64,000 bases of DNA, from positions 17,846 to 81,845 of IMG/VR virus record IMGVR_UViG_3300030202_002773; one strand, given 5' to 3'. The stretch is from a virus. A model generated the notes under the pieces. It ran no database searches. It was given only the letters and a program-made list of their open reading frames with translations, and had not been told where the DNA came from. A program made the translations under genes and the position numbers. The number at the start of each line of letters is the position of its first letter. Within the stretch, counting starts at the first letter, position 1. This document shows positions 15,263-32,144 of this stretch, one piece after another.

Positions 15263-18200
15263 ATGCCAATAGAAATAGATCCAAATATACAGTTTCCTAC
15301 TACAAAGGTTCCTAGAAATAAAACAAATGATCCTAAATGGGTAGATCCTAATACTCCACTTGTATATGGTCCAAAGAGTGGAAGAATAACTTCTCCTGCA
15401 ATACACAGTCATAGAGACTTATCATGGAAATTATGGGATCCAAATTCTGGAGAATATGAAAACGTTTCAAAGTATAGTAAATATGGAGTTATGTTTAGTG
15501 CTTATGGGCCTTCTTGGCAAGAACAAAGAGCAAGAGGACAAAGCACTGGAGAAAAATGGAATCACGGACTTAAAAAAGCAGCTGTAACTACTGGAGGAGC
15601 TATTGTAGAAAATACTTTAGGTGTTATAGCTGGGGTAGGAGAATTACTAAGTGGTGGTCAATATCATGATAATTCTATTGGGCATATGGTAGATGGGTGG
15701 AATGATTGGGCTAGAAAAGAAATGCCTAATTATTATACTGAAAAAGAAAAAAATATGGGACTTTATGGTAGAATGGGAACTGCTAATTTTTGGGCTGATA
15801 AAGTTGCTAATGGTGCAGGATATACTATAGGGTCATTAGCTACTATGTACCTTACAGGAGGATATGGTCTTATAGGTTTAAGTTCTAAAGCATTAAACAT
15901 GAGTAGTAAAGCTGCTAATATAACAAAAGCACAAAAAATATATAAACTATATAAATCAGCTCAAGGTACTAAAAGAGGAGAGAAATTATTATCAATGTAT
16001 AGTAAAATGAATACAGGACAAAAGTTTAGAAATGGACTTTTAACATTAGAAGCTGGAGCAATGATGTCTTTAGCAGAATCTTCTGTAGAAGCTAGAGAAA
16101 CTCAAAAAAATATAAAATCTCAATTATTAGAAGAAGCAAAAGAAAAATATCCTAATGGAGTACCTGAAAATGTGTTAGCAGAAATTGAATCTTTATCTCA
16201 ATCGGCAGGTAATAGTTCTTTTGTAGGAAATATGACTATTTTATCTTTATCTAATATAGCTATGTTTAATAGATTTTTAGCTGGAGGAGTTACAAAACAA
16301 AGTTTAAAGAGTGGGGTTACAGGTGGAGGATTAACAAAAACTGGAACTAAAACTGTCGTAGATAAAGGATCTTCATCTTTTTTTGGAAGAGCTAGAAAAT
16401 GGACAAAACCTTTAAGAAGAGGTGCACTTATAGAAAGTCTTCAAGAAGGAGGTCAATACGCAACAAACATAGCTTCTACAGAATACTATTCATCTAGATT
16501 TGACAATAAAGGAGGTATAACTATGATGCAAGCTCTTAATGAAGGAGTATCTAGAACATTTGGAGAAACAGAAGGATTAGAGTCAATGATGATAGGAGCT
16601 ATAATTGGGGGAGTTTCAGGAGGTGTAACTGGAACAATAGGTCCAATAAAACAAAGAAATAAATTAGCAAAAAAAGTACAAGAAATTATTAATGATGATG
16701 CTTTTATGAATATTGTTGATAGAAGTCAAGCTAATGCACGTACTTCACATTTTTTAGACAAAGCTGATAAATATAGAGCTGAAGGGAAAGATAAGTTAGC
16801 AGATCAAGCTATGACTCAAGCTTTTATAAGTGAAATATCTACTTTAGATAATGCAGGAACATTAGAATTTTTTACAGAAAGATTAGAAGATTTTAAATCT
16901 CTTTCTGATACAGAATTTAAAAAATTATTTGGTATAGCTGAAGATACACAAATAGATAAAAATCAAGTTATTGATAATATGATAGAAGAAACTGAAAGCA
17001 TAGTTAAAAGAAAAGATGCTTTAGATTTAATGTTTCCAGCTGAAAAAACAAGAGGTTTACCAAGACGTATGATGAGTGAAGAAGCTAAGGCTGAAGAAGA
17101 CCAAAGAATTAAAGAAACAATGATTTTAAAAGATCATCTATTGCAAAATGCAGTATTTTTAGATCAAGTAGAAAATCAAAAAAGAGATAAAGCAAGAGAG
17201 ATAGATGAATTATATCCAGGCATAACATTAAGTACTTTAGAAGAGCAAGCAGATTTAGCTACAGAAGAATATGATTTATTAGTTGAACAGTATATTAGAA
17301 AAGCAGGGGCAGCTGAAGAAGTAGATGAAAGTGGTACTCCTATAACAAATGAAAGTCAAATTCCTGAAGCAGATTTATTAGCTATGCATCAACAAGCTTT
17401 TGGTAATTTTGTTACTAGTGTAGCAGAATCTGTTAAAAATATTAATTTAAATCACCCTTTAGATAAACAAGCTTTAATGGGTAGTCTTCAAGAATACTAT
17501 GGAATACATCGTAGTTTACAAGGTCTTATGGAGTCTTTTAATAGACTTCAAACTAATGAAGGTAAAAATAACTATATAAGAGCAGCTTTAATAGATGGAA
17601 AACAAAGTATAAAAGATGCTGGTAATAGAAGAGCTGATGAAATTTTAAATAATGAATCTGATCCTGACAATGCTATGGATAATATTCCTCCTAATGCTAG
17701 TAAAGCAAAAAAAGCTGAAATAGAAGAGGAAGTTAAAAGAATGAAAAAAGAAGAGCTAGCATTGTTAAATAAGTATGGAGATCCTGGAGTTTCTGTAGAA
17801 ACTATAGATAAAGAAATTGAAAGACTTAAAAAAAATCTACAAGATATTAAAGATAATCCTAAAGCTGCTAAAGATTTAAATTTTAAAATTAAAGTTTTAG
17901 AAACTGTTAAAACTGTAAAACTTAGTCCTGAAACTTCTATAGCTGAAAAAGACGCTAAGTCTGAAGTTGCTACTGAAGAAGAAGTTACCGAAGAAAATAA
18001 AGTTGAGCAGACAGGAAGAGGAAGAAGACAAATTGATAGAATAAAAAAGAAATATGAAAGTGCAAAACAGCCTCAAGAAAAATTAGGTTTAATACAAGAT
18101 TTTATTAATAATGTATATCAAGGTGCTGAGGCTACTCAAGAAGAAATAGATTTCTTTAATAATGAAATAGAAGCTCTTAAAAAAGAAGGGTTTGAACTAC

Positions 18201-19237
18201 AAATGGAGACACAACCTGGGAATAGATGGAATGAAGGTATGAATGTAGAAGTTATATGGCGTCTAGATGATACTTTACCAGAAGGTGTTACAGTAATAGA
18301 TAGAGTAGATGAGCCTGGCATTATGAAAGATGGGCAATTACAAAGAAGAGCAAAAATAACAGTAAAACGAGGAGAGAAAAAAGGAACTGAAAGACCTGCT
18401 TTAGTTGAAGCTAGAAATAAAGCTGAAGCTATACCAGGGACAGGGAAAAAGAAACTAGATACAATAAAAAAAGCTAGTCAAGCTCTTAGTGACTTTGATA
18501 ATCAATTTACTAATCCTTTTAATCTTGCTGATTTAGCAAGTGAAGAATCAATAGTTTCTACTGAAACTGAAGTTGCTCCTATAGATCAAAGAGAGTATGA
18601 AATTCATTTAGAAGGTAATTGGGGTGAATTAAAACCTGGTTGGGGAGTATGGGAAGAGTTATCTATAGATGGAATAAAAATAGGAGATCAACGATTTACA
18701 GAACAAAAAGATATTTCATTTCTAGAAACAGAAAATAAAGATTACAGAATATTTACAATTACAGATAGAACATCTAGAGATACTTCAGGTAGAAGTGGAG
18801 GTGTTAGTGTGTCTATGGTGTTTCCTAAAGATACGTCAAGAACTTTAGCCGATGTTAAAGAAAATTTATTAACTTTGAACGCTGAAATACAAGGAACTAG
18901 AGATCGTATACATTTTGACAGCAAAGCAATACAGGCTATTCAAAGAATGGATATGAAAGAAATAGCTACTCCTACTGTGAATGAAGAAATAGTTATAGAA
19001 GATAACACTTCTAAAGAAGAAATAATTATAAAAGAGGAATTAAGTGCGGTAGAAGAAGATAGATTAAAAAACGAGCTAGAAACAGATGTACAAACAGATA
19101 TATCAACTGAAATGGCTGAAGTAGATCAAATACCTATTACAGAAATGAATGGTTACTATCAAGATCTTTTAGTTGAAGAAGAAGAGCTTCGTAAAAGGTT
19201 AGAAGAAGAAGATGATAATTGTAAAACTAAAAAATAA
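15263..19237 (+). CDS. Giant ejected protein 1 (RNAP-associated), with membrane-type N-terminal segments and a GrpE-like insert
   Basis: 'RARGQSTGEKWNHGL', 'NFWADKVANGAGYTIGS' and 'IGAIIGGVSGG' resemble the first giant gene of the crAss RNAP cluster; acidic C-terminus. Confidence 0.65.
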   Translation: MPIEIDPNIQFPTTKVPRNKTNDPKWVDPNTPLVYGPKSGRITSPAIHSHRDLSWKLWDPNSGEYENVSKYSKYGVMFSAYGPSWQEQRARGQSTGEKWNHGLKKAAVTTGGAIVENTLGVIAGVGELLSGGQYHDNSIGHMVDGWNDWARKEMPNYYTEKEKNMGLYGRMGTANFWADKVANGAGYTIGSLATMYLTGGYGLIGLSSKALNMSSKAANITKAQKIYKLYKSAQGTKRGEKLLSMYSKMNTGQKFRNGLLTLEAGAMMSLAESSVEARETQKNIKSQLLEEAKEKYPNGVPENVLAEIESLSQSAGNSSFVGNMTILSLSNIAMFNRFLAGGVTKQSLKSGVTGGGLTKTGTKTVVDKGSSSFFGRARKWTKPLRRGALIESLQEGGQYATNIASTEYYSSRFDNKGGITMMQALNEGVSRTFGETEGLESMMIGAIIGGVSGGVTGTIGPIKQRNKLAKKVQEIINDDAFMNIVDRSQANARTSHFLDKADKYRAEGKDKLADQAMTQAFISEISTLDNAGTLEFFTERLEDFKSLSDTEFKKLFGIAEDTQIDKNQVIDNMIEETESIVKRKDALDLMFPAEKTRGLPRRMMSEEAKAEEDQRIKETMILKDHLLQNAVFLDQVENQKRDKAREIDELYPGITLSTLEEQADLATEEYDLLVEQYIRKAGAAEEVDESGTPITNESQIPEADLLAMHQQAFGNFVTSVAESVKNINLNHPLDKQALMGSLQEYYGIHRSLQGLMESFNRLQTNEGKNNYIRAALIDGKQSIKDAGNRRADEILNNESDPDNAMDNIPPNASKAKKAEIEEEVKRMKKEELALLNKYGDPGVSVETIDKEIERLKKNLQDIKDNPKAAKDLNFKIKVLETVKTVKLSPETSIAEKDAKSEVATEEEVTEENKVEQTGRGRRQIDRIKKKYESAKQPQEKLGLIQDFINNVYQGAEATQEEIDFFNNEIEALKKEGFELQMETQPGNRWNEGMNVEVIWRLDDTLPEGVTVIDRVDEPGIMKDGQLQRRAKITVKRGEKKGTERPALVEARNKAEAIPGTGKKKLDTIKKASQALSDFDNQFTNPFNLADLASEESIVSTETEVAPIDQREYEIHLEGNWGELKPGWGVWEELSIDGIKIGDQRFTEQKDISFLETENKDYRIFTITDRTSRDTSGRSGGVSVSMVFPKDTSRTLADVKENLLTLNAEIQGTRDRIHFDSKAIQAIQRMDMKEIATPTVNEEIVIEDNTSKEEIIIKEELSAVEEDRLKNELETDVQTDISTEMAEVDQIPITEMNGYYQDLLVEEEELRKRLEEEDDNCKTKK

Positions 19238-22200
19238 ATGGGCTGTAATGAAAATAAAATAGGCAGTATAGAAGCTAGACTAGCTAAAATTGCTAGAATG
19301 AAAGCAGCTTTAGAAGAGCGTTTGCAAGAACAAACTCAAAAAGATAGTAGTACTATTACAATTGCTAATGCTAAATTTGATAATGAAATTCAAAATGTTG
19401 AGGGAACAATAAGGCGTAATGTAACTATAAAAAATGAGGAAATTGTACCTGTAAAACGAAATCCTAATACTATAAATAATCTTCCAGATGAAGTAGATAA
19501 TTCTAGATTAAATAGTCAACAAATTTTACCTGGAGATTTTGTAGATGTTGCGTTAATAGAAAATGACTATTGGGCAAACATTAAAAATGAAGTAGCAGAA
19601 CCATGGATGGAAGCTCCTTTATATATTATAGACAAAGAAGGTAATAAATTAGATTTACTTGAAGCTTATAAAGAACATAATTTAAATACACACGCAAGAA
19701 AAGCAATATACGAAGCTTTACAAGAAGATAAAAAAGTTGAATTAAAAGTAGAATCTAAAATACCTAATTTTAATAATATTAGAATTGGGGGTATGCCAGT
19801 ATTTTTTGATATTTCAGAACAGTTAAAAATGCATACTTTTAGAGATACTGATGGTAATTTTGTTACTGCTGTTAATGAAAATACAAAACCTATATTACTT
19901 GTTGCTACTGGTATAGGAAAAAATCCAAAATGGAATACTGGAGACTTAAGTTACTTAGAAACAAAAATACAAGAAGCTATTTATGGAGATTTAGGAGAAC
20001 CTAAAAGATTACCTAAATCAGAACACATGGGTAATGTATTTGCTTTAAGTCTTACTCCAGAAGGTAAATACTCATACGTTAAATTAAGTACAAGAAGTTT
20101 ATCTAATAAAGCATATGAATATGTTTTAAATGAGTTAAAAAATAATAGAAGTGAAAATATTAATCAAATTGTAGGTAATAATACATTAAAAGAAGTTTCT
20201 CATAAAGATCCTAATTTTTTATCTATTGAAACTATAAATATTGAAGAAAATAAAGATCTTACATTTATTAATTTTTATAGTCCTAAACATGATAAAGCTA
20301 TAAGAATAACTTCTGAAGAATTTAATAAAGGTCTTAACAAAGAAGTATTTAGTTTTAATACTGGTAAATTTATTATAACTAATCCAGAAAAACTAGTACC
20401 AGATTTTAAATGGCAGACATCTAAAACTATAAAAGTATCTAAATCTGATAATGTTAATCCAGTAATAAATGAATTTTTAGAAGTTCTTAAAAATAAAAAG
20501 CATCAAATAGATATAGATTTATTAACTAGTACAGAAAATTTTTCTATTCCTGGATTTACTAAACCTTCAGGATATAATTCATATCAAGAATATCTTTTTG
20601 ATGAAAATGCGCACGGAGATCCGTATGCTTATAATATACCTGTTAAAAATAATAAAGCAATTTTAAATACAGATATAAAAAATATAGAAGGTTCTATTTA
20701 TTACAATACTCATGTAGTATTTAATGATGTACTAATAGATGGAAAATCGATATTAAGTGATCCTACATTAATGCCAGAAGGAGGACTAAATCCTGCTATA
20801 GCTCCTAAATTAACAGGAGCCCCAAAAGGTCAATCTGTAGGTCCTAAATTAAATAAAGGTCCTAAATTAGGTCCTTCTGAATTAGAAGATTTATCTGCTT
20901 TTAGTGTTACTGTAGGGAATAAAAAAGCACCACCATTAAATCCTGAAAGAGCAAAAGCATGGTTAGAAGAAAGATTTGGAAAAGGGTCTACTACAATATT
21001 ACAAGGAGTTAATAAAATAGGTAATATAACTAGGCATGGATATTTTGAGAATATGGCTTTTTATTTATATCAAAATGCTAGAATAGGTGTAGAATATCAT
21101 GAAGGATATCATGGAATGTTTAGAATGTGGCTTACTGACAAGCAAAGAGAAGCTTTATATAATGAAGCTAGAAAAAAATATGGTATACCTACAGATAAAG
21201 AAATAAAAGAATTAAATGATACTAGAGAAAAATTTGGACTAGGAAGATTACCTATAAAAGAAGCTGAAGAATTAGTTTTAGAAGAAAAAATGGCTGAAGA
21301 TTTTAGAGAATACATGCTTACTGATGGAAACTCTTCCCCAGGAGGTAAAATAGCTAAATTTTTTAAAAGTATATGGAATTTTATTAAATCTATGTTTACT
21401 GATAGTATGAGTATTAGACAGTCTTATGAAATGCTTGAGTCTAATGTAGTTCCTGTAACATTTAAAAGGAATATTCAAAGATTTTCAGGGGATACAGCTA
21501 ATTCTATAGAAGGATATACAGATAAAAATATAAAAGAAGTACTAGATTATTTAACAGCTAGATATAGAAAAACTATAAATGATTATCAAGCAAAAGGTAA
21601 AAAAGTTCCTTATAAAAGTTTAAACACTAGAATAAAAAATTCTGTATTAAGAGAAGCTTTTTCTACTACGGAAGGTTTACCTATAGAAGGACCTCAAGAT
21701 TTAGAAGTATTGAGACAATGGTATGATTCAAGATTTGACGGATTATTAAAAGATAATAATATTGTTAAAGCTTCTCCTCAACCTATAATAGGAGAGCCAA
21801 AAACTCAAGGATATCCTGCACAAAATAATCATGATTATTTAATAAGTATTTATGAAAATTGGAACGATATAATTGATAATTCTAATACTGAAAATTTAAG
21901 ACGTATAGGATTTGAAAATTTAATGCAAGATACACTAAGAGCAAGAGGTTTAAATTTAAAATTAGGAGAAGTTATATTAGAAGAAATAGAAGAAGGCTCA
22001 GCCTATGAAAGAATATATTCTAGATCTAGAGTAGAAGAAGATATGAGAAGTAAAATAGGATCTAAAGTAAAAGAATTCTTATCTACTATTCCTACAGGAG
22101 AAGCTTCATATTTAGGGTATGAAGTATATATGGAATTTGACAAAGTATATAAAGATATACAAAATCTTTTAGCAGATTCTGCCTCTTTCCCTGTAATGCT

Positions 22201-25200
22201 TAAAAGGTTAGAAGATGCAGGACCATTAAAACCACATTTAGCTGAAGTACATAAAAGATTAAAAGAAACAAAAGATAATAATTTAAGAGCAGCTTTTGCA
22301 TTTACTTTTAAACAAAGTAAAAATAATTTCTTTTTAGTTAAAGAAACTGTAGAAGGATTACAATTTATAAATTCTGATCGTAATGCTGTTGAATCTAGAC
22401 TGTTAGACCAATGGAGAACTAATTCAGTACAGTATGAAGGATTTCCAAATGAAAGACATTTATATAAAATAAGACAAGTAAGAGATAATTTAATTTATAC
22501 TCCTAATAAAAATAGAGTTAAAAAAATAAATTCTACTTTTGACTCAATGAATAAAATATATGATGCTAATCCTACATTACCTGTTTCTGAAGAAAGGATT
22601 GAAGATTTAATTAATTTTTTATATATGCTTGGAATAGATATAGGAACTTCACCTGAAATATCTAAAAACCTATTAAGTACTTATTTTAGAGAAGGATCAA
22701 GAGATTTTTCTAAAACAGGAGAAAAATTAAAAGAAGTAGCTTTATATAAAGCAATGTTAGATAATAATACATCTACAGAAATATCAAGACTTGTAAAAGG
22801 TCTTAATGCTAATGAAAATATTTATAATAATTATAGAGGAGTATTATCTAGATTTGTTAACATAGCAATGAAAAGTGATGTAGATATTTTTACATCCTTT
22901 ATGAATGTTAAAAATAATTCTATGTTTCCTATAAATATGCCAACTGTATTTGATGATTTAATTTTAAATTTAAAAGGAAATAATAGAAACTTTTTTACAC
23001 CTTATTTAGAAGATAGTTTTTATAACCCTTCAGAGTATAATACTGCTGCAAGATCTTTATGGTTAACAATATATGGAGGACTTGCAGGTAATTTTTCTAC
23101 GGAAGCTAGACAAAATTTAAAAGCTGAAACTTTAGATGGATATAAAAAATTTAGCGGTAGAGGTTTTGATTTTGGTGAAATGAATGAATTACAATCTGCT
23201 TATATAAGACTTGGATTATTTATGGATAGATCTGGTAAAAGAGGATATGTTAATATAGTTGCTCCTAATTTTTCTGATAGATCTAAATTAAAAAAATATT
23301 CAGTTCCCTCTATAGATACTATAACAAAAAAATTAAATATATCTGAAAAAGATATAATAAAAGGTATTATAATTCAAGATTTAATGAGGTATCAACAAGC
23401 AGAATTAGATACTCAAACTGAAGAAGAAGGAGGATTACCAGTCAATCAATTGATACCTGGATTTCATTATTTAGAAACTCCTGGAGATGGTTTAGGTAGA
23501 GCTTTTCAATTAATGCAATTTACTGCAGTTGAAAATTCTGAAATATTTGGAACAAAAGTAGAAAAATATTTAAGTGATGTAAATTGGGAAGATTATCTTA
23601 GTGGAAATCTAATGTCTATAAATAGAGAAGCTGTAGATCAAGCTTTAAATACTCAAGTAGAAAATGTTATTGAGTCTATGAATAATAATATTGAAAAAAA
23701 TATGAAATATTATACTGATCAGGGACTAATGGCTAAACTTAATAAGTCTTCAACTAATCCATATACAAGTAAAAGAGAATTATTTAGACAATATGAATTA
23801 AATAATATGATTCATAAAATAGAACTTCAAAAATTTACTAGAGGTGGAATAGCATTTAATAAAAGTTACACAGATTTTTCTAAAAGATTTGGTAACATGG
23901 AAACTCCTGGATATAAATTATTAATAAAAGGAGAGTTAAAAGATGAAAGTTTTGGATTTTATAAAGAATTTAATGAAGGTTTAATAGAAGACTTTTTTAC
24001 TACACCTTTAATTTATGATGAAATTGGAGAATCTATTACAGCTACATTACAACAACAAGGGGATCCTGAAGCTGAAAGTCTAGGTAATTTATATAAAGGA
24101 GGACAGTCTAATAAATCAGATGCTTTTGGAGTTGTGTCTATAGATTTTTATAAAGCATTTCAGCAAGGAAAAGGAGAATGGCAAAAAGAAGATGAAGAAG
24201 CATTTCAAAATTATAAAAATGGAAAACCAGGAAGTAGATTTTTTAGAGACAATAGTGGCAGGCGTAGAAGAGTAGCTCCTATTAAAACATATTTTGATGC
24301 TATGATTGTTAAAAATGGTAGTATGATTCCTAGTAATACTAAAAATTCATATATGGTATTATTAGAAGAGTTTACACTAAGTAATCCTACTACAGAAATG
24401 ATAAGACAAAGACTAGAAAAAGAAAGTAATTTCTATCATTTACCTGAAATGCATGTATTAAATACTGTTAGTACTAAAAAATTAGCCTATAGTGGCGTAG
24501 AAGACCTTAATAATAAAGATAATGTATTAGAAAAATTAACTAATATGGCAGTAACATCTCATCCAGGTTCTTCTTTAAGAATTCCTCAAATAATTCCAGA
24601 AAAAAATAAAAATTCTGGAATATTTGCTAGGCAATTTATGATAAATATTATAGCTAATATGGATTTAAATAATCCTTCTCTTGATTATAATGTAAATGAA
24701 AATAGATCTAATTCTCTTTCACTAAATGCAAAACAAGTTTTTGATTTATATCAAAATTCTATTGTAAATATGATAGATAATAGCTTTAATGATTTTATTA
24801 CTAAAATAGGTTATAAAGGTTTAATAAATGCAACAGGACATGAAAATAGAATAGAATCACAATTAAATTTATTTAAAAGTTTAAGAGAAAGAATAAGTGA
24901 AGAATTAAAAGAAAGAGAATTATCTAATAATTATACAAATGCTTTAAATATAGAAAAAACAGAAAAAGGAAATTATAGATTTAAAACACCACTAGCTTTT
25001 CCTTTTATAAAGCGTAAAACAGAAAGTCTTGTTATGGGAATGCTTAAAAAAGATATTGCTAAGCAGACTATTAATGGAGGAAGCGCTAAGCAAATTGCAG
25101 AATTGGGAGGACATATAACTTATGAACAATCTACAGGTCTACCAAGTAATTGGACAGAATTAAAATTTATTAGAAATAAAGATGGAAGTATAAAACATGC

Positions 25201-27604
25201 AGAAGTAGCTATACGTGCAGATGTTGCTGCTCGATATGGTCTTAAACCAGGTCAAAATTTAAACTCTATACCTGAAAGTTTAAGAACTTTAGTAGCATAT
25301 CGTATTCCTAATCAAGGTAAAAATTCTATGCTTCCTATGATTATTAAGTATGTATTACCTGAAAATTATGACCAAGCAATTGTTGTTCCTGGGGGAATTA
25401 CAACTCAACAAGGAGGTGATTTTGATATTGATACATTATATTTAATGATGCCTAACACTAGAAGAAATTCTCAAACGAATAAAATAGAAAAAATAAATGT
25501 AGATTATAATAAATTATTTCTAGATGGTCAATTAAATTATATAGAATTAGAAAAATTAAATAGACAAGAATTAGAAAATATAATAATAGATTTATCAGAA
25601 GCTATTCTTAGATCTAAAAAACACTTTAAAGAAGTTGTACAGCCTTTAGATTCTCCGGATCTTAAAAATATTGCAGAAAATATAAAAGAGGTATTAAATT
25701 TAGAACAAACATTTGACCATAATGATTCATTTTCAGAAATACAATTAGAAAGAATGAATAAAGACGGTAATAATGGAATTGGTATTTATGCAAATGCGCT
25801 ATCCGGTAAAAATATTGCTGTTTATTCTGAATTACATTTAAAAGCAGGATTAGCTCCTATTATTGATAATAAAGAATATAATAATTTACAAGTATTTAAA
25901 GATGATAAAAGTACTTCTAAACGTACTCCAGACAGAGAAAGTGAGCTTATAGAGTATAATATATCTAAAAAATTAAGTTCTGCAGTAGATAATGCAAAAG
26001 CTCCTGATATGTTTTTTAGAAATGATAATCTTTTAACATCTCCTATAAATACTTTATTTGATTCTTTAGGAATTAATGAATTTACTACACATGATTATTT
26101 AAATCAGCCTATTATTAAAATGTTAACTAAAGTGTATCAAGATGGTGAGTATACACCTAATATGTTATATGAAGCTGCAAGTGCAACTTGGGATCAATAT
26201 ATAGATAAATATGATACAGGCGCATCTTTGAATATGCCATTCTCAGAACTTACAGATTTTGGATTTTCAGATATGTTTACTGAAAAGTTACAAAATATAT
26301 CAGAAGAAAATATAGATCATGAAGATCAACTTGGATATCTTAATAATTTTTTATCATTTCATAAAACAGGTAGAGAATTAACAAGTGCTTATGTAGTTCT
26401 TAATCAAGATAAAGGTGCAGATCAAGCTAGCTTTGGAGGATTACTTTCTTTTAAAGGAAGGAGAAATGTTTTATTACAGAATGATACTGTAAAAGGTTTT
26501 GATTCTGTATTAGATGGAACTTCATACCCTTTACAAGCTGCTTATAAGACATTAATTGACCAAATGTTAAATTTTGGATCCGAGTTTTTTATACACAATA
26601 AAAGATCTGTAGTTAAAACTAAAGCTACAATAGCAACTTTATTAAATAAAGAAAATTTAACAGATGTAGATCATAGAACTATTGAAGATGCTATGCTATT
26701 ATACATGATGTCTAAAAATGATAGCCCACTAAGTTCTATATTTACAGATTCAAAAATAAATGAATTATTAAGAGGTAATAAAACTAATTTATTTGCTAAA
26801 TTGCAAAAATTAAAATTAGAATTTCCAGAATTGAATGAAAATGCATTTATAAAAAACGTAGTAGAGCACCCAGAAAATATAAAAGAAGGTTCTCTTTTAA
26901 CAAGAGTTAAATTTCAAAATATATATTCATTTACTAAATCTGAAGTAGATTCTTTTATTAGAAGTTTTGGTAATTTAATGGTTCATGAAAATCCTCAAAT
27001 AAGAGAAATAGCTAATGATTTTATAAGTGTTTCTTTATTAACTAATGGTTTTACACCTAGCCATGATAGTTTTATAGATATAATACCTGTAGAAGCATTA
27101 AAAAGATCTTCTAATTATTTTTATGATCAATTCGATCTGTTAGACAATATAGAGTATTTTGATAATGATTTTGCACATGATTTTGTACGTAATTTTTATT
27201 ATACAGATATAGTAAATAATATTAGAGTTTCAAAAAACGTTGTAAATTCTAATGTAATCAAACTTAATTGGAAAGATAGTAGAATTTATTCTAAAAATTT
27301 AAATAAAACAGTAGATTATTTTACTGTATCTAATAATCAAGGAACTAAATTATTTGTTAAAAATGCAGAAGTTGGAAATGATGTATTTTATGAAAGATCT
27401 ACTACAAAAGGTATACCACATGGATTAAAAGAAATAAATATAAAAAATTCTGAAGGTATAAAAATAGAAAAATCAGTTATTCAATCAAATTATATAAATA
27501 AAAGTAATACAAAACCTGGACTAGCTCGAATACATGAAAATAAAGTTAATGAAGCAGTTGCAGATAATGAAGACGCAATTAAAAGATGTATAAATATAAC
27601 ATAA
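19238..27604 (+). CDS. Virion-packaged DNA-dependent RNA polymerase (crAss type) with N-terminal zincin-like domain
   Basis: Catalytic 'GGDFDIDTL' (nt ~25412-25440) preceded by 'YRIPNQGKNS'; 'SSAVDNAK'; HExxH 'YHEGYH' with downstream 'EEKMAEDF'; 2788 aa. Confidence 0.92.
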   Translation: MGCNENKIGSIEARLAKIARMKAALEERLQEQTQKDSSTITIANAKFDNEIQNVEGTIRRNVTIKNEEIVPVKRNPNTINNLPDEVDNSRLNSQQILPGDFVDVALIENDYWANIKNEVAEPWMEAPLYIIDKEGNKLDLLEAYKEHNLNTHARKAIYEALQEDKKVELKVESKIPNFNNIRIGGMPVFFDISEQLKMHTFRDTDGNFVTAVNENTKPILLVATGIGKNPKWNTGDLSYLETKIQEAIYGDLGEPKRLPKSEHMGNVFALSLTPEGKYSYVKLSTRSLSNKAYEYVLNELKNNRSENINQIVGNNTLKEVSHKDPNFLSIETINIEENKDLTFINFYSPKHDKAIRITSEEFNKGLNKEVFSFNTGKFIITNPEKLVPDFKWQTSKTIKVSKSDNVNPVINEFLEVLKNKKHQIDIDLLTSTENFSIPGFTKPSGYNSYQEYLFDENAHGDPYAYNIPVKNNKAILNTDIKNIEGSIYYNTHVVFNDVLIDGKSILSDPTLMPEGGLNPAIAPKLTGAPKGQSVGPKLNKGPKLGPSELEDLSAFSVTVGNKKAPPLNPERAKAWLEERFGKGSTTILQGVNKIGNITRHGYFENMAFYLYQNARIGVEYHEGYHGMFRMWLTDKQREALYNEARKKYGIPTDKEIKELNDTREKFGLGRLPIKEAEELVLEEKMAEDFREYMLTDGNSSPGGKIAKFFKSIWNFIKSMFTDSMSIRQSYEMLESNVVPVTFKRNIQRFSGDTANSIEGYTDKNIKEVLDYLTARYRKTINDYQAKGKKVPYKSLNTRIKNSVLREAFSTTEGLPIEGPQDLEVLRQWYDSRFDGLLKDNNIVKASPQPIIGEPKTQGYPAQNNHDYLISIYENWNDIIDNSNTENLRRIGFENLMQDTLRARGLNLKLGEVILEEIEEGSAYERIYSRSRVEEDMRSKIGSKVKEFLSTIPTGEASYLGYEVYMEFDKVYKDIQNLLADSASFPVMLKRLEDAGPLKPHLAEVHKRLKETKDNNLRAAFAFTFKQSKNNFFLVKETVEGLQFINSDRNAVESRLLDQWRTNSVQYEGFPNERHLYKIRQVRDNLIYTPNKNRVKKINSTFDSMNKIYDANPTLPVSEERIEDLINFLYMLGIDIGTSPEISKNLLSTYFREGSRDFSKTGEKLKEVALYKAMLDNNTSTEISRLVKGLNANENIYNNYRGVLSRFVNIAMKSDVDIFTSFMNVKNNSMFPINMPTVFDDLILNLKGNNRNFFTPYLEDSFYNPSEYNTAARSLWLTIYGGLAGNFSTEARQNLKAETLDGYKKFSGRGFDFGEMNELQSAYIRLGLFMDRSGKRGYVNIVAPNFSDRSKLKKYSVPSIDTITKKLNISEKDIIKGIIIQDLMRYQQAELDTQTEEEGGLPVNQLIPGFHYLETPGDGLGRAFQLMQFTAVENSEIFGTKVEKYLSDVNWEDYLSGNLMSINREAVDQALNTQVENVIESMNNNIEKNMKYYTDQGLMAKLNKSSTNPYTSKRELFRQYELNNMIHKIELQKFTRGGIAFNKSYTDFSKRFGNMETPGYKLLIKGELKDESFGFYKEFNEGLIEDFFTTPLIYDEIGESITATLQQQGDPEAESLGNLYKGGQSNKSDAFGVVSIDFYKAFQQGKGEWQKEDEEAFQNYKNGKPGSRFFRDNSGRRRRVAPIKTYFDAMIVKNGSMIPSNTKNSYMVLLEEFTLSNPTTEMIRQRLEKESNFYHLPEMHVLNTVSTKKLAYSGVEDLNNKDNVLEKLTNMAVTSHPGSSLRIPQIIPEKNKNSGIFARQFMINIIANMDLNNPSLDYNVNENRSNSLSLNAKQVFDLYQNSIVNMIDNSFNDFITKIGYKGLINATGHENRIESQLNLFKSLRERISEELKERELSNNYTNALNIEKTEKGNYRFKTPLAFPFIKRKTESLVMGMLKKDIAKQTINGGSAKQIAELGGHITYEQSTGLPSNWTELKFIRNKDGSIKHAEVAIRADVAARYGLKPGQNLNSIPESLRTLVAYRIPNQGKNSMLPMIIKYVLPENYDQAIVVPGGITTQQGGDFDIDTLYLMMPNTRRNSQTNKIEKINVDYNKLFLDGQLNYIELEKLNRQELENIIIDLSEAILRSKKHFKEVVQPLDSPDLKNIAENIKEVLNLEQTFDHNDSFSEIQLERMNKDGNNGIGIYANALSGKNIAVYSELHLKAGLAPIIDNKEYNNLQVFKDDKSTSKRTPDRESELIEYNISKKLSSAVDNAKAPDMFFRNDNLLTSPINTLFDSLGINEFTTHDYLNQPIIKMLTKVYQDGEYTPNMLYEAASATWDQYIDKYDTGASLNMPFSELTDFGFSDMFTEKLQNISEENIDHEDQLGYLNNFLSFHKTGRELTSAYVVLNQDKGADQASFGGLLSFKGRRNVLLQNDTVKGFDSVLDGTSYPLQAAYKTLIDQMLNFGSEFFIHNKRSVVKTKATIATLLNKENLTDVDHRTIEDAMLLYMMSKNDSPLSSIFTDSKINELLRGNKTNLFAKLQKLKLEFPELNENAFIKNVVEHPENIKEGSLLTRVKFQNIYSFTKSEVDSFIRSFGNLMVHENPQIREIANDFISVSLLTNGFTPSHDSFIDIIPVEALKRSSNYFYDQFDLLDNIEYFDNDFAHDFVRNFYYTDIVNNIRVSKNVVNSNVIKLNWKDSRIYSKNLNKTVDYFTVSNNQGTKLFVKNAEVGNDVFYERSTTKGIPHGLKEINIKNSEGIKIEKSVIQSNYINKSNTKPGLARIHENKVNEAVADNEDAIKRCINIT

Positions 27605-27608
27605 TACT

Positions 27609-30600
27609 ATGAGATGTAGATTTTATTTACACGGGAAACCTAGCCAATTTTTAACAGATTTATATAATGCTGTAGAAGAAATAAATCCTAATTTAGGTAT
27701 GATACATGATATACTTAAACATTATAAAGTTATACAACAAAGATACGGTAAGATGTTTATTTACCAAGGAGAAGATTCTAGTATAGCTTTAAATCATGTT
27801 CGAAGAATAAATAGAAGATATCCTAATTTAATAGCTTATGAATATAAAGGTCAAACTAGTAATAGGTTTGGACGGGAAAATAATGAAAAATATACATTTG
27901 AGATAAATACAGCTGTTCTTAATAATGTAAAAAATATGAGTTTTCCTGAAGACGCTATAGAAATAGAAAAGGAAGAACGATTAGCTGCTCAAGCTAGAGA
28001 GGAAAGGGATATGAAACTTGCTGAACAATCATTATCAGAACAAGTTAGGAGAGAAAATACATCAGAGAATAAAAGTTTATTTGGAAAAGAAGAAGAAAAA
28101 AGTGAATCTGTAAAAAAAGCAGATAAATTAAAACATCATTTTAAAGGAGTTGGAGTAGATATTAATGTAAATTTTACTAATGATTTAGCACCTAATGTTT
28201 CAGCAGATATTACAGGCACCGGCCCTAGATCTGCAGATGTAAGATTAAATAATACATATCTACAAGATGATGGTGTATATCATGAATTTGGACATGCTTA
28301 TATAGATCTTCTTGGTATAGATAATACTTTAGTTAAACAGGCTTTTAAACAGCTTAAAGGGTCTGAATTAGAAAAAACAGTACTTAATTCTTATCCTGGG
28401 TTAGAAGGTGTAAAATTACAAAAAGAAGTATTAGCAACAGCTATAGGATTAGAAGGAGCTAAGGTAGAAAAAAAGAATCCATCTAAAATACAAATTTTAT
28501 TAAATAAAATATTTAGAAGTATTGGAAAATTATTAGGTATAAATCAAAATGCTGCTGCTATATTAGCTGAGCAAATGTTTGCTGGAGAAATAAGATCTAA
28601 ATATCTTATTGGAGAAATAAGTGGATTTACACAAGAATCTAAAGATAGAAATTCTTTACAAAAGAAAATTGATGATGTTAGAATATATACGAGAAAACTT
28701 AAACGAATAGCAGAACAACGTAATGATGCAGCTAGTCAGGCAAGAGCTGAGGCACTAGAACAAACTTTAGAAAATATAAAATCACTAGAAGATTTTATAT
28801 CTTTTATAGATATGTCTGCTAAAATAACTTCTAATATTGCAAATAAATATCAGTTATTACAAAATAAAATAAAAGCAGGTGAAAAAATTGAAACTTCAGA
28901 TCAAGCTACTTTAGCTGAATTAAATCAATATATACAGGGTTTTGATATTCTAGAAGGATTAGAAGTACTTTTTACGGAAGAAAAGCAAAATAGAGTAAAA
29001 CAAACAACAGCTTTTAATACAGCATATGATAAACTTGGAGCTGTTGTTAGACAAAGAAAATATTTAGAACAGCAATATATAGATATTGCAATTCCAATAC
29101 AAGCAGAGTTTTTATCTCCATATATATCTCAAGAAGTTAATGAAAATTTAGATAGTTTAATACAAAATATTGATGAGCAAGAAGGTATTGATAATAAAGT
29201 ATTAGCTGCAAAAAGACATTTAGATAAAAAAGATAATAATTGGATTCAATTAAATAAAGATCTAAAACAAAAAAGAATTTCTGAAGAGGAGTATAAAAAT
29301 AATCTTATATCTTTAGTTAAAGAGCAGTTAGAAAATAAGAAAATGCATAAAAAAACATTAATTCAAATTTTAACAAGAGCTCATAAAGATGGAAGTACTT
29401 TTTCTTATTGGATGGATCCATTAGTTTGGTCTAACGATAATGCTATACAATTATTTGCATTAGCAGTTAAAGATGCATTATATGAAGGAGATGAAAAAAG
29501 TAGAGAAACTCAATATAAAATTCAAGAATTATATAATAATTTCACTGAAGGAGTTACAGGAATAAACAATGTTCAAAAGTTATATGAAGATTTAACAGAA
29601 GATATTAAAACTTGGGTAAGAGATGAAGATGGAAGTTATAAACAGATAGATAGAGCTGGATGGGTACAAGAATTAGATATGCCTAGATATCAAAAGAATA
29701 AACAACAAGCAGTCGAGCAAGCAAAAAACAAAACTTATTTTAGGGAAAGAAAGGATTTTGAAAGCGATGAGCTATTTGAAGACTATAAAAATAGTATAGT
29801 GGATTATAAAGTTAATGGTAAAGTTGTATATAAAGCTCAAACTAAAGAAGAAGCTTATAGATTAGTTAGAAGAGCATTTGGAGAGGCAATGGGGAAATGG
29901 AGACAAGAAAATACAGTACCTAAAAGAGATGCTCAAGAAATTATGAGAAAGCATGAAGATAAAATAGCTTATGTTTATAAAGAAATGAGACCTCTTCAAA
30001 AAAAGCTTGACGATAATACAATAACATCTATAGAAATAGAAAAATTAAATTCTTTAGAAATAGAATTAAGTATTTTAGACAATTGGAGACAAACTAATTA
30101 TTATGTTAACCCAAGATATCCAGATAGCTTAACTCCTAAAGGATCGTTAGTACAACCTTCACAAGGAGAAAAATTAGCAGGTGGTAAAAATAGAGTAGAT
30201 TATACTAATTCTAAATATAAAGCTATTATGGCTGATCCTAGGAAGAGAAAGTTTTATGAGGGAATGATATCTATATATAAAGAACATCAAGATAAATTAG
30301 GATCTGCAGGACATCAGTTAGGAAAAGATAGTTTTAGTGATATGGCCTATGCTTTACCGTCAATAAGAAAAGTAGATAAAGATAGAGCTATAGAACAAGG
30401 AGTACTTAAAACAATGAAAGAATGGTGGGTAGATGGAACAGATATAACTGATACTGATTATCATATATACGGACAAAGATGGGAAACTATTGGAGGTAAA
30501 CAGCGTAAAGTAGTACCTGCTTTTTTTACTAATGCTGTAGATAAAAATGAAATAAGTTTAGATTTAACTTCTAGCCTGTTAGCATTTGTAGGTATGGCTA

Positions 30601-32144
30601 ATACATATGAAGCTAAAGCAGGAATTCAAGCTCAAGTACAAATAATGTCAGATTTAATTGAACATAGAGAAACAGATTTAACATCTCCTTCAGGAATAAA
30701 AATTATAAATGATTTAGCAAAAGGACTTGGAATTGAACAAGCTAGATCTAAAGAAGGGCGTGAGAGTAATAACTTTAAACATTTAACATCTTTTTTAGAT
30801 CAAAATGTATTTGGTGAAAAAGCAATTTTAAAACAATTCTCATTTTTTGGAAAGCAATTTGAAGCTAATAAACTATCTGGTAAATTAGCTGGATATACAG
30901 CTATGAATGCTTTATCTTTCAATTTATTACAAGGAGTTAATCAAAATGTACTTGATAATATAATTGGATATAGTGAAGCCTCTGCAGGTCAATTTATAGA
31001 TAAAAAATCTTTACTTAAAGGTAAAAATACTTATTGGAGTAAAGGTGGAGCAATTGGAGATTTAGGTAAAATAGCTCCTACTACTTTTGTAGGACAAATA
31101 GCTGAAATGTATGATATGATTCAAGGAGAATTTAGAGATAATTTAGGTAAAAATGTAACAGGAACTAATGCTAAAAAATTATTTTCAAGTGATGCTATGT
31201 TCTTTTTACAGCACGGTGCAGAACATGAAGTTCAAGTAAGTAGAGGTTTAGGAATGTTGGCATTTATGAAAGCTAAAGATAAAAAAGGTAAGCAGCTTAA
31301 AAATCCAGATGGTTCTGATATGACAATGTTAGATGCACATAGTCAAGATAGCAAGGGTAGAGTAAAAGTTGATGAAAGAGTTGCTAATTTTGATAGAATG
31401 AGATTTATGAATAGAATACATGGTATAAATAAACGTACTAATGGTGTCTATAATGACTTTGATGCTGCACATTTAAAAAGACATTGGTATGGTAAATTAG
31501 CAATGTTATTCAGAGGATGGATGGTTCCAGGTTATAGAAGAAGATTTGGACACGGAGAGCCTTGGCATTCAGATCATGAATTAGGAGCAATAACTCAAGG
31601 AACTTATATGACTTTTTATAAAATGCTTAGAGACAGTATTAAAACTCAGAGTAATCAATATAAAAATATGTCTGAGCTAGAAAAACAAAATGTAAGAAGA
31701 GTATCAACAGAAATATACGCTTTAGCTACTACATTTGCAATTGCTTCTGCTGCAGCATTATTAATAGATCCTGACGATGAAGAGCCTAATAGCTGGGCTG
31801 TTAATTTCTTATTATATCAAAATAGAAGATTACGTTCTGAACTTTTCTTTTATGTAAATCCACATGAAACATGGAGATTAACTAAATCGCCTACAGCAAC
31901 AATTAGACCATTAGAAAATATTGGAGCATTTGCTTTATCTACTTTAGAAAATATGTATTATTTTGGACTTGGAAATTTAGGGGGATTAATACCTGAAAAA
32001 AATATTTATTACCAAAGAAAGTCTGGAGCTAATAAAAAAGGTGAACTTAAATGGGATAATAAACTTGAAAAAGCTATTCCTATATTAAAAGGTGTTGGAA
32101 CTAGTAAAACTCCTGGAGAAGCTATTAAGTGGTTTAATATGTAG
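27609..32144 (+). CDS. Giant ejected protein 3 (RNAP cluster) with zincin HExxH domain
   Basis: 'YHEFGHAY' motif; C-terminal 'RIHGINKRTNGVY...GKLAMLFRGWM' resembles the last crAss RNAP-cluster protein. Confidence 0.7.
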   Translation: MRCRFYLHGKPSQFLTDLYNAVEEINPNLGMIHDILKHYKVIQQRYGKMFIYQGEDSSIALNHVRRINRRYPNLIAYEYKGQTSNRFGRENNEKYTFEINTAVLNNVKNMSFPEDAIEIEKEERLAAQAREERDMKLAEQSLSEQVRRENTSENKSLFGKEEEKSESVKKADKLKHHFKGVGVDINVNFTNDLAPNVSADITGTGPRSADVRLNNTYLQDDGVYHEFGHAYIDLLGIDNTLVKQAFKQLKGSELEKTVLNSYPGLEGVKLQKEVLATAIGLEGAKVEKKNPSKIQILLNKIFRSIGKLLGINQNAAAILAEQMFAGEIRSKYLIGEISGFTQESKDRNSLQKKIDDVRIYTRKLKRIAEQRNDAASQARAEALEQTLENIKSLEDFISFIDMSAKITSNIANKYQLLQNKIKAGEKIETSDQATLAELNQYIQGFDILEGLEVLFTEEKQNRVKQTTAFNTAYDKLGAVVRQRKYLEQQYIDIAIPIQAEFLSPYISQEVNENLDSLIQNIDEQEGIDNKVLAAKRHLDKKDNNWIQLNKDLKQKRISEEEYKNNLISLVKEQLENKKMHKKTLIQILTRAHKDGSTFSYWMDPLVWSNDNAIQLFALAVKDALYEGDEKSRETQYKIQELYNNFTEGVTGINNVQKLYEDLTEDIKTWVRDEDGSYKQIDRAGWVQELDMPRYQKNKQQAVEQAKNKTYFRERKDFESDELFEDYKNSIVDYKVNGKVVYKAQTKEEAYRLVRRAFGEAMGKWRQENTVPKRDAQEIMRKHEDKIAYVYKEMRPLQKKLDDNTITSIEIEKLNSLEIELSILDNWRQTNYYVNPRYPDSLTPKGSLVQPSQGEKLAGGKNRVDYTNSKYKAIMADPRKRKFYEGMISIYKEHQDKLGSAGHQLGKDSFSDMAYALPSIRKVDKDRAIEQGVLKTMKEWWVDGTDITDTDYHIYGQRWETIGGKQRKVVPAFFTNAVDKNEISLDLTSSLLAFVGMANTYEAKAGIQAQVQIMSDLIEHRETDLTSPSGIKIINDLAKGLGIEQARSKEGRESNNFKHLTSFLDQNVFGEKAILKQFSFFGKQFEANKLSGKLAGYTAMNALSFNLLQGVNQNVLDNIIGYSEASAGQFIDKKSLLKGKNTYWSKGGAIGDLGKIAPTTFVGQIAEMYDMIQGEFRDNLGKNVTGTNAKKLFSSDAMFFLQHGAEHEVQVSRGLGMLAFMKAKDKKGKQLKNPDGSDMTMLDAHSQDSKGRVKVDERVANFDRMRFMNRIHGINKRTNGVYNDFDAAHLKRHWYGKLAMLFRGWMVPGYRRRFGHGEPWHSDHELGAITQGTYMTFYKMLRDSIKTQSNQYKNMSELEKQNVRRVSTEIYALATTFAIASAAALLIDPDDEEPNSWAVNFLLYQNRRLRSELFFYVNPHETWRLTKSPTATIRPLENIGAFALSTLENMYYFGLGNLGGLIPEKNIYYQRKSGANKKGELKWDNKLEKAIPILKGVGTSKTPGEAIKWFNM

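Follow-up and report, generated by a model that had tools for sequence, protein, structure and literature searches.

The window analysed here is a 64,000-nucleotide stretch of a marine, crAss-like phage (positions 17,846 to 81,845 of IMG/VR record IMGVR_UViG_3300030202_002773). On its forward strand lie three giant open reading frames (ORFs), the middle one of which encodes a particle-borne RNA polymerase. The first gene, p1 (15263..19237), encodes a 1324-aa cargo protein of the family PHROG 32390 (E = 1.4e-28), with matches to g067 of phage phi14:2 (blastp, E = 1e-5) and gp47 of ΦcrAss001 (E = 2e-17). The polymerase gene, RNAP (19238..27604; 2788 aa), is related by tblastn and blastp to phi14:2 gp66, ΦcrAss001 gp50 and 86 Crassvirales records. 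Its catalytic motif, DFDID, is encoded at 25418..25432 (residues 2061-2065), and D2061, F2062, D2063 and D2065 are invariant in an alignment of 19 sequences (A2). The DFDxD motif has been named previously, and its position in gp66 corresponds to residues 1361-1365 (bioRxiv 10.1101/2020.03.07.982082). The third gene, p3 (27609..32144), encodes a 1511-aa RNAP-associated cargo protein homologous to phi14:2 g065 (blastp, E = 4e-28) and ΦcrAss001 gp49 (E = 2e-40). It contains a zincin-type HExxH motif, HEFGH (28281..28295; residues 225-229), for which the surrounding p3 consensus is YHEFGHIY in an alignment of 20 sequences (A1); according to the phi14:2 preprint, gp65 orthologues have a zincin-like protease domain. 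None of the three proteins matched a Pfam family at E <= 0.01. With a DFDxD protein, flanking giant genes of the g067/gp47 and g065/gp49 types and an HExxH motif, the window shows the sequence traits of the Crassvirales virion RNAP module.

A preliminary description of this DNA claimed that the three giant proteins contain only four cysteines, all at the gene junctions and with identical spacing, and that the two free outer ends have none. The cysteine count bears this out for this phage, in which no additional internal cysteine was found. The single cysteine of p1, Cys1320 (TGT, 19220..19222), is the fifth residue from the C-end (DDN-C-KTKK), and across the first junction RNAP begins M-G-C, with Cys3 encoded by TGT at 19244..19246. 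The only other cysteine of RNAP, Cys2784 (TGT, 27587..27589), is again fifth from the C-end (C-INIT), and p3 begins M-R-C, its single cysteine being Cys3 (TGT, 27615..27617); the codons of both junctions were read directly from the DNA. The outer ends, i.e. the N-terminus of p1 and the C-terminus of p3, have no cysteine. The peptides quoted earlier for the first junction are also present, and an acidic p1 end (net charge -3 over the last 20 residues) does face a basic RNAP start (+2 over the first 20). The identical spacing, however, is a property of this phage and not of its relatives, in which the distance of the cysteine from the C-end is 1-7 residues among 98 distinct tails, and its position counted from the N-end is 3-6 among 89 distinct heads.

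Cysteine makes up 0.857% of the other 32 window ORFs of at least 100 aa, from which 48 cysteines would be expected in the 5,623 aa of the three ORFs; only four are observed (0.07%; Poisson, 3e-16). The probability that four cysteines fall one at each junction-facing end, within the terminal five residues, is 1.5e-11. TGY codons occur four times in frame versus 296 times out of frame in these ORFs, which places the depletion at the level of the protein, not of the DNA. The observation of terminal cysteines stands, and chance falls far short of explaining it.

The same placement is found across relatives. Among 139 database homologues (254,785 aa), 152 of 181 cysteines lie no more than 10 residues from an end. 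The only cysteine is 1-5 residues from the C-end in 66 of the 71 members of the p1 family, none of which has a cysteine within its first 10 residues; likewise, the only cysteine of p3 proteins is at position 3-6 in 38 of 40, and their last 10 residues are free of cysteine in all 40. The RNAP search returned 28 proteins, 18 of which have exactly two cysteines, both terminal. RNAP C3 and C2784 are invariant in alignment A2, as is p3 C3 in alignment A1. At the level of whole loci, 54 of 55 distinct intra-cluster junctions from IMG/VR have cysteines on both sides and none has a cysteine on one side only, the lone junction with neither being frameshift-like. The cultured phages phi14:2, ΦcrAss001 and p-crAssphage follow the rule. 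Conservation in homologues, which the preliminary description had anticipated, thus extends through Steigviridae, Intestiviridae and Suoliviridae and down to about 23-27% identity, and the pattern is kept at about 25% identity while the adjoining residues vary. Next to the cysteine, lysine and arginine are enriched, one or the other following it directly in 47% of the tails and in 57% of the heads; such a neighbour favours a reactive thiolate.

Loss of the terminal cysteines where the genes are fused had been predicted, and this is what the fused genes show. A triple fusion (P0020), an RNAP+p3 fusion (P0022, for which blastp detected no p1 and whose N-terminus resembles p1) and six fused IMG/VR ORFs, non-redundant and at most 4,700 aa long, contain no cysteine at all, and two p1+RNAP fusions (P0023 and L052) retain the C-terminal cysteine alone. 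One locus (L022) has an additional gene split, with a new cysteine pair. The N-terminal module of RNAP (about 555 aa) occurs inside RNAP, free-standing or fused to p1, and whatever its context cysteines are present only at the real breaks; where a gene boundary is shifted, it takes the cysteine pair along. Cysteine and gene break were concordant in 41 of 41 rows at site B and in 52 of 54 at site C, the remaining two being one mapping artefact and one real exception. Trees (FastTree, with some long branches) place three independent changes at site B and three at site C, for which a sign test gives p = 0.25 for each site alone; on the p3 tree, all 59 split forms have the cysteine and none of the nine fused forms does. 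Compared in this way across genes, a peptide bond and a cysteine pair are seen to be interchangeable at three different sites, some of which lie in poorly conserved, linker-like regions. The p1 homologues of ΦcrAss001 and cr128_1 lie on the opposite strand and keep the C-terminal cysteine, neighbouring genes are spaced -4 to 17 nt apart in IMG/VR loci and as much as 130 nt apart in p-crAssphage, and the number of residues after the C-terminal cysteine varies; the pattern is therefore not one of DNA.

There are exceptions to the rule. P0018 (4744 aa) has two internal cysteines and no terminal one, and two p1-family proteins (P0070 and P0093) have none. Internal cysteines occur in gut members (one in ΦcrAss001 gp50, two in the cr128_1 RNAP and seven in p-crAssphage gp44), and large Suoliviridae proteins have six to seven. 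Both p-crAssphage gp47 and crAss002 gp30 have a C-terminal cysteine that is followed by a gene without an N-terminal one, so some terminal cysteines may have other partners. Gut crassviruses nevertheless keep the cysteine pairs; their retention in the largely anoxic gut, where spontaneous oxidation is doubtful, could mean that the thiols have a role other than disulfide formation.

Several known systems bear on the function of these cysteines. Among them are phi14:2 (g067-g066-g065) and ΦcrAss001 (gp47, gp50 and gp49), whose homologues of p1, RNAP and p3 have the same terminal-cysteine pattern, apart from the one extra cysteine and the inverted p1 homologue of ΦcrAss001. All of these proteins have been found in virions by mass spectrometry, and gp66 has been reported to enter the host and transcribe early genes. 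The view that a disulfide chain had not been described before holds for crassviruses, since no description of it or of the terminal-cysteine rule was found in the literature searched. The available text of the phi14:2 preprint has no match for cysteine or disulfide. That of the ΦcrAss001 atlas has none for 'cysteine' and describes disulfides for gp57 (a dimer) and tail proteins (hub and ring) only, with gp47, gp49 and gp50 lacking a resolved structure; structural disulfides as such are therefore in use in crassvirus virions. Outside the crassviruses, however, there is a published precedent. Cryo-EM of virions of cyanopodophage A4 (Anabaena phage A-4L) revealed a disulfide between gp27 Cys1715 and gp26 Cys5 (PNAS 2025, PMC12002296). 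Each is the only cysteine of its protein, the first three residues from the C-end and the second at position 5. As in the window, adjacent genes encode large internal or ejection proteins with sole cysteines at their facing ends. A4 gp26-gp29 had no phmmer match to the cluster proteins of the window at E <= 1, and the likeness is therefore one of mechanism and not of family membership. The A4 bond also differs in that a single link connects two proteins of a ring with five-fold symmetry, no RNA polymerase being involved, whereas the crAss chain would comprise three or four proteins. In the parts of that paper that describe the bond, the authors report it singly and draw no rule from it (PMC12002296). 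Covariation with gene fusion and fission was no part of the A4 work.

On the strength of these comparisons, we consider it rather probable that the cargo proteins are strung together by disulfides between them, as a thread that corresponds to the polyprotein encoded by other Crassvirales. In this phage p1 Cys1320 would pair with RNAP Cys3, and RNAP Cys2784 with p3 Cys3. All three proteins would be packed in the capsid as cargo, as judged by their homology to virion proteins of phi14:2 and ΦcrAss001. Their thiols would be free in the reducing cytoplasm of the host; once the particles had reached oxygenated water, the ends that adjoin would oxidise to give one covalent thread of 5,623 residues, which may serve as the functional counterpart of the single polyprotein. 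The tail channel admits cargo only in unfolded form, and so presumably nothing short of a covalent link would hold the proteins together, and in order, while they are ejected; placed no more than seven residues from a chain end, such a link would add hardly any bulk. Once inside a new host, whose cytoplasm is reducing, the links would be broken and the RNA polymerase set free. Disulfide-linked two-chain toxins and virus capsids that are reduced on entry follow the same principle, with a covalent bond that persists outside the cell and is broken in the reducing cytoplasm, although these proteins are unrelated and the bond there connects capsid subunits, or chains produced by proteolysis, instead of successive gene products end to end.

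The purging of all other cysteines may avoid wrong cross-links and permit unfolding through the tail, a reason suggested by the parallel with ejection proteins of other phages. Those of Schitoviridae (N4 gp50-52 and DEV gp71-73) and of T7 (gp15 and gp16) show strong cysteine suppression, like the three proteins of the window: homologues of DEV gp71 contain 0.00075% cysteine versus 0.865% in the proteome, and T7 gp15 and gp16 contain none. Unlike the window's proteins, in which they are invariant (A1 and A2), those of N4, DEV and T7 have no conserved terminal cysteine pairs. The giant virion RNA polymerase of N4, ejected as beads on a string, unites three parts in one 3,500-residue polypeptide, whereas the window has separate genes, each of which ends or starts with a cysteine.

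It is also conceivable that the disulfides form but are static, locking the cargo into a stable internal body (a pre-ejectosome), as proposed for A4, with no ordered threading through the tail. In a symmetric pentameric ring of A4, the C-terminal helix of gp27 does fit into a gp26 cleft and is described as 'further stabilized' by the disulfide (PMC12002296), and the cargo of ΦcrAss001 occupies a defined zone of the capsid. Continuity of a chain is nevertheless the better fit to the exchange of peptide bond and cysteine pair at three sites, linker-like regions included, and just 0-6 residues follow the C-terminal cysteine. We regard a static body as unlikely, although static and chain roles can coexist.

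Considerably less likely is that the terminal thiols are not paired but bind a metal ion, or attach to the portal, the capsid wall or other cargo. Their retention in gut phages from anoxic habitats and the unmatched C-terminal cysteines of p-crAssphage gp47 and crAss002 gp30 would suit such a role. It is at odds with the occurrence of the cysteines two by two at IMG/VR junctions and with the cysteine-free outer ends of both the p1 and the p3 families. Moreover, in the tails and heads compared, no further His or Cys that could serve as a metal ligand is conserved beside the terminal cysteine, and the same signature is a disulfide in the A4 structure.

Protein ligation or splicing chemistry that makes one true polypeptide from the separate proteins is very improbable. 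The cysteine near the N-end of the following protein is reminiscent of the +1 nucleophile in splicing systems, and the C-terminal cysteine is preceded by Asn in 22 and by Asp in 17 of 98 tails. This preceding residue is variable, however, an intein or Hint domain is absent from the Pfam results for all three proteins, and only 0-6 residues lie past the C-terminal cysteine and 2-5 before the N-terminal one, such that split inteins, with Hint halves flanking the break, were rejected. Two modifications of terminal cysteines were rejected as well. The signal peptide of lipobox lipoproteins puts the cysteine about 15-25 residues from the start, whereas it is at position 3-6, with no hydrophobic leader, in 89 of 89 distinct heads; the CaaX prenylation motif has its cysteine exactly fourth from the C-end, as is the case in 4 of 98 distinct tails (range 1-7). 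Finally, the gene gaps of 0 and 4 nt in the window and the use of TGT at both junctions might recall a functionless pattern due to chance, shared ancestry or a boundary nucleotide signal (e.g. translational coupling) that encodes cysteine, but the comparative data reject this reading and leave it a negligible probability, given the placement in this window alone, the low identity at which the pattern is kept, the tracking of moved, new and lost junctions, and its validity for an opposite-strand gene and across a 130-nt gap.

The preliminary interpretation, a disulfide-linked ordered chain, is thus partly supported. More tentatively, and with rather less confidence than in the chain itself, the disulfide-linked thread may be one form of a Crassvirales-wide covalent 'virtual polyprotein' (4,500-7,000 residues) in which peptide bonds and terminal disulfides are alternative ways of joining the modules. 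Such a polyprotein would leave the capsid unfolded, as one thread, and come apart in the reducing cytoplasm, which would act as a redox arrival switch, and its signature might be a general, sequence-only predictor of linked internal phage proteins and of their order. As a predictor the signature already has one success, in the cryo-EM structure of A4, an unrelated podophage. It also provides a simple annotation rule, which points to the probable true start of crAss002 gp33.

No phages are more abundant in the human gut than crassviruses. If the disulfide chain is true, a covalent head-to-tail link would be a mechanism for the co-packaging of their cargo proteins in equal numbers and for ordered co-ejection, the order of which is ascribed in the ΦcrAss001 atlas to packing and mutual interactions, as probable determinants. 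The link would also be a built-in release signal, with the redox switch signalling arrival of the proteins, and the thread would be the counterpart of the single giant polymerase of N4. Such a link would further explain how cargo genes have been free to fuse and split in the course of crassvirus evolution.

The window comes from an IMG/VR viral record of 81.8 kb and belongs to a divergent crAss-like phage with near relatives in Tara Oceans assemblies. Its largest protein, the virion RNA polymerase (RNAP; 19238-27604, + strand, 2788 aa, DFDID at residue 2061), matches polymerases from 86 phage records, almost all of which bear Crassvirales or crAss-like names, and core identities among the 60 of 86 matches listed are 22-39%. 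The RNAP gene abuts the genes of two other giant cargo proteins on the same + strand, p1 (15263-19237, 1324 aa) upstream and p3 (27609-32144, 1511 aa, HEFGH at residue 225) downstream. The three proteins are homologous to g067, g066 and g065 of phi14:2 and to gp47, gp50 and gp49 of ΦcrAss001, and these homologues have been detected in virions by mass spectrometry, as stated in a record annotation and in the literature. According to the accessible part of the phi14:2 preprint, gp66 is delivered to the host cell, where it transcribes early genes (bioRxiv 10.1101/2020.03.07.982082).

Cysteine is depleted from this cluster. The preliminary description had reported only four cysteines, all facing gene junctions, and a computed count over the 5,623 residues bears this out: p1 C1320, RNAP C3, RNAP C2784 and p3 C3 are the only ones, each no more than five residues from the end facing the neighbouring protein. 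At the cysteine content of the other ORFs of the window (0.857%), 48 would be expected in place of the four observed (Poisson 3e-16), and the placement of the four has by itself a probability of 1.5e-11. In the cluster genes, 296 TGY triplets lie out of frame and only 4 in frame, which indicates that selection works on the protein. Four more sizeable ORFs in the window also contain no cysteine (12483-15257, 924 aa; 6274-8658, 794 aa; 60031-62325, 764 aa; 62426-63505, 359 aa). The 924-aa and 794-aa proteins, encoded a little upstream of p1, may be additional cargo or ejection proteins; since they have no terminal cysteine, a chain joined through such residues would end at p1. The 924-aa protein had no Pfam or PHROGs match, and the 794-aa protein had a single weak PHROGs match (phrog_28412, E 0.00068).

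Three homologue searches of a 5.8-billion-protein collection yielded 139 proteins (254,785 aa) with 181 cysteines, of which 152 are no more than 10 residues away from a chain end; the remaining 29 are internal and restricted to 10 of the proteins. One cysteine, 1-5 residues from the C-terminus, is found in 66 of the 71 p1-family proteins, none of which has an N-terminal cysteine. Similarly, 38 of the 40 p3-family proteins contain one cysteine, at position 3-6, and none contains a C-terminal one, while exactly two cysteines, both terminal, occur in 18 of the 28 proteins from the RNAP search. Cysteine 3 of p3 is invariant in an alignment of 20 sequences, as are C3 and C2784 of RNAP in an alignment of 19. 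The sole close IMG/VR relative recovered with the RNAP query (L001, 70% identity) keeps all four cysteines, with the residues after them changed. Overall, the cysteine lies 1-7 residues from the C-terminus or at position 3-6 of the chain. Methionine aminopeptidase removes the initiator methionine when residue 2 is small, as it is in 76 of the 89 distinct heads; thus, the cysteine would usually come second in the mature protein.

Cultured or named crassviruses from three families also obey this terminal-cysteine rule. In phi14:2, the cysteine is the last residue of g067 (C1797), residue 3 and the second-to-last residue (C2179) of g066, and residue 3 of g065, so that the expected partners are C1797 with g066 C3 and C2179 with g065 C3. 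In ΦcrAss001, it is third from the end of gp47 and residue 5 of gp49, and gp50 has cysteines at residue 5 and ninth from the end as well as one internally. The gp45 protein of p-crAssphage ends in SCM and gp44 starts with MSC; cr128_1 and two Suoliviridae conform as well. In crAss002 (L078, MN917146; 12206-12310), the annotated start makes residue 35 the first cysteine of gp33. Translation from the internal Met33 would begin with MSC, like p-crAssphage gp44, so the annotation probably starts 32 codons too early. In the Suoliviridae records L079 (cr56_1) and L080 (cr4_1), the annotated coding sequences are interrupted in frame by 7-38 stop codons when read with table 11, which suggests stop codon reassignment and leaves the cysteine counts unaffected. 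Additional Pfam domains are present in several p1 or RNAP homologues, namely PF18760 (P0006, P0030) and PF08719 (P0013, P0015, P0026, P0068), and P0015 is listed by one source as a predicted ADP-ribosyltransferase of the DUF1768/YbiA family; effector-like domains may therefore ride on the ejected chain.

The terminal cysteines are paired across gene breaks. Junctions were surveyed in 71 IMG/VR loci that the p3 alignment had retrieved, by classifying all + strand ORFs of 300 aa or more and excluding gaps above 200 nt and locus ends. Of 55 distinct cluster junctions, 54 have a cysteine on each side and none has a single unpaired one; the remaining junction, which lacks both, is an overlapping, frameshift-like break within p3 (L059 6126-6144). 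Where the genes are fused, the cysteines disappear: a p1+RNAP+p3 fusion (P0020), an RNAP+p3 fusion (P0022, whose N-terminus is p1-like, p1 itself being undetected by blastp) and six non-redundant fused RNAP+p3 ORFs from the IMG/VR loci contain none, over lengths of up to 4,700 residues. The p1+RNAP fusions (P0023, L052 and Suoliviridae) retain the C-terminal cysteine alone, and the following gene retains its N-terminal one. The pairs also follow breaks that are new or have moved. In L022, a separate gene product covers the first 585 aa of the polymerase, with a cysteine at each end, and in at least nine loci the same N-terminal polymerase module is the C-terminal part of a p1-like ORF, with cysteines where the break now lies and none at its former position. 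Retention of the terminal cysteines in relatives and their absence from fused genes had both been predicted in the preliminary description.

This covariation was also scored on trees. In a tree built from the C-terminal domain of p3 (113 rows dereplicated at 90% identity to 68, excluding 5'-open ORFs of unknown state and the N-truncated gene call P0109), the N-terminal cysteine is present in 59/59 split forms and the junction cysteine in 0/9 fused forms, with at least 3-4 state changes. On an RNAP-core tree (57 of 72 rows kept, counting only rows with an assignable site state), two junction sites were scored as split or fused; site B was concordant in 41/41 rows and site C in 52/54. The site C misses are P0018, a real exception, and L010, a mapping artefact via a frameshift. 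For each site, the starred branches provide only three independent contrasts, and all three agree (sign test p = 0.25); pooling the sites gives 6/6, but they are different sites whose lineages may be shared, and this figure is not relied on. With only three contrasts per site, the argument rests on the near-perfect pairing and the very low cysteine background. Neither tree showed a closely related split/fused pair, and when the 150 aa at the facing ends of four split pairs were compared with nine fused proteins, a single weak blastp match resulted (E 0.001), the junction-proximal regions being too divergent to identify the residue at the junction of the fusions.

The break in the RNAP gene of L010 (9362-9371) was rejected as an additional split, as it is a frameshift-type break in which ORFs in different frames overlap by 10 nt and a cysteine occurs in the out-of-frame tail by accident. 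Neither this break nor the one in L059 (6126-6144) has a cysteine pair. Both are probably assembly errors rather than exceptions to the rule, programmed frameshifting being the other reading.

A signal at the DNA level was rejected on three grounds. The p1 homologue of ΦcrAss001 and cr128_1 lies on the opposite strand, apart from the gene of the polymerase, yet has its single cysteine at the C-terminal end; genes in the IMG/VR loci are separated by -4 to 17 nt, and in p-crAssphage by as much as 130 nt; and the place of the cysteine relative to the chain end also varies (1-7 residues from the C-terminus, position 3-6 at the start). Lipoprotein, CaaX and intein readings of the terminal cysteines were likewise rejected.

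Three homologues break the rule: P0018, a 4744-aa protein with two internal cysteines, and the cysteine-free p1-family proteins P0070 and P0093. In addition, p-crAssphage gp47 (L076 1606-4179) and crAss002 gp30 (L078 1511-3184), smaller upstream proteins, have a single cysteine 2 or 8 residues from the C-terminus without an evident partner; the next genes lack an N-terminal cysteine, gp46 of p-crAssphage having none and gp31 of crAss002 one, at residue 699. Two features of gut crassviruses count as weak points of a disulfide reading: they keep the cysteine pairs in a habitat without oxygen, and they tolerate some internal cysteines. The gut records (L004, L076-L080) have some internal cysteines in the cluster proteins (1-7 per protein) and the window-related IMG/VR loci (L005-L075), whose near relatives include Tara Oceans sequences, almost none; selection against stray cysteines could be weaker without oxygen. 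Thioredoxin-like genes are annotated in p-crAssphage (L076 26996-27274, 27994-28263) and cr128_1 (L077 10328-10573); they may act on the redox state of the cargo or in nucleotide metabolism alone.

Suppression of cysteine in ejected proteins is described for N4 and DEV in the available text of the reports on them. T7 gp15 and gp16 likewise contain none, gp14 (L082 1229-1819) has a single cysteine at residue 2, and gp14-gp16 show no facing pairs. N4, DEV and T7 share with the window cluster a paucity of cysteine but not the terminal pairs. Cyanophage A4 does share the signature. Cryo-EM of its virion, as described in the accessible text, places a disulfide between gp27 Cys1715 and gp26 Cys5 in the outer layer of the pre-ejectosome (PMC12002296). 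These two are the sole cysteines encoded by the adjacent genes of the A-4L record, 3 residues from the C-terminus and at position 5. The A4 bond, observed experimentally, is the one described case of a facing-cysteine link; its authors, in that text, report the one bond and draw no general rule. No sequence similarity was found between the A4 and crAss cluster proteins, so the resemblance lies in the mechanism and does not imply a shared family. In A-4L (L081 25321-28497), gp28 has two cysteines, 20 and 23 residues from the C-terminus, and gp29 has none. For crassvirus cargo, a search of a limited collection of papers found no description of terminal cysteines or disulfides. In its accessible part, the phi14:2 preprint uses neither "cysteine" nor "disulfide" and notes merely that some phages encode the three proteins as one fused polyprotein, which is 'likely cleaved' (bioRxiv 10.1101/2020.03.07.982082). 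The ΦcrAss001 atlas gives disulfides for gp57 and the tail only, in the text available (Bayfield 2023). By its masses for gp47, gp50 and gp49 (262.5, 276.9 and 154.5 kDa), a fully linked ΦcrAss001 chain would amount to about 694 kDa, and its mass spectrometry of reduced and non-reduced samples may be relevant to such links.

A peptide bond and a facing cysteine pair are interchangeable at three sites, and the simplest reading is that the pair forms a covalent bond, a disulfide. Depletion, pairing, the tracking of gene breaks and the relationship to known virion proteins are regarded as established, whereas free thiols during assembly, later oxidation, survival of the thread and its opening are inferred. 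On these sequence patterns, the balance tilts modestly towards inter-protein disulfides that join the cargo proteins into one covalent thread. Lysine or arginine beside a cysteine would favour a reactive thiolate, and one of the two stands at +1 of the terminal cysteine in 47% of tails and 57% of heads. A complex prediction for RNAP 2699-2788 with p3 1-130, made from single sequences without alignments and with the partner's own fold uncertain, gave an ipSAE of 0.00, a value that counts neither for nor against docking of the two ends. Ordered threading and reductive release are rated as less probable than the covalent thread itself. The reducing cytoplasm would keep the thiols free during assembly, and they would oxidise after release. 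The accessible text of the ΦcrAss001 atlas argues for partial unfolding of cargo at constrictions below 50 Å (Bayfield 2023). A link this near the chain ends would add almost no width, and a disulfide-linked thread would withstand the unfolding needed for tail passage, the link then being opened, it may be supposed, by the cytoplasm of the next host.
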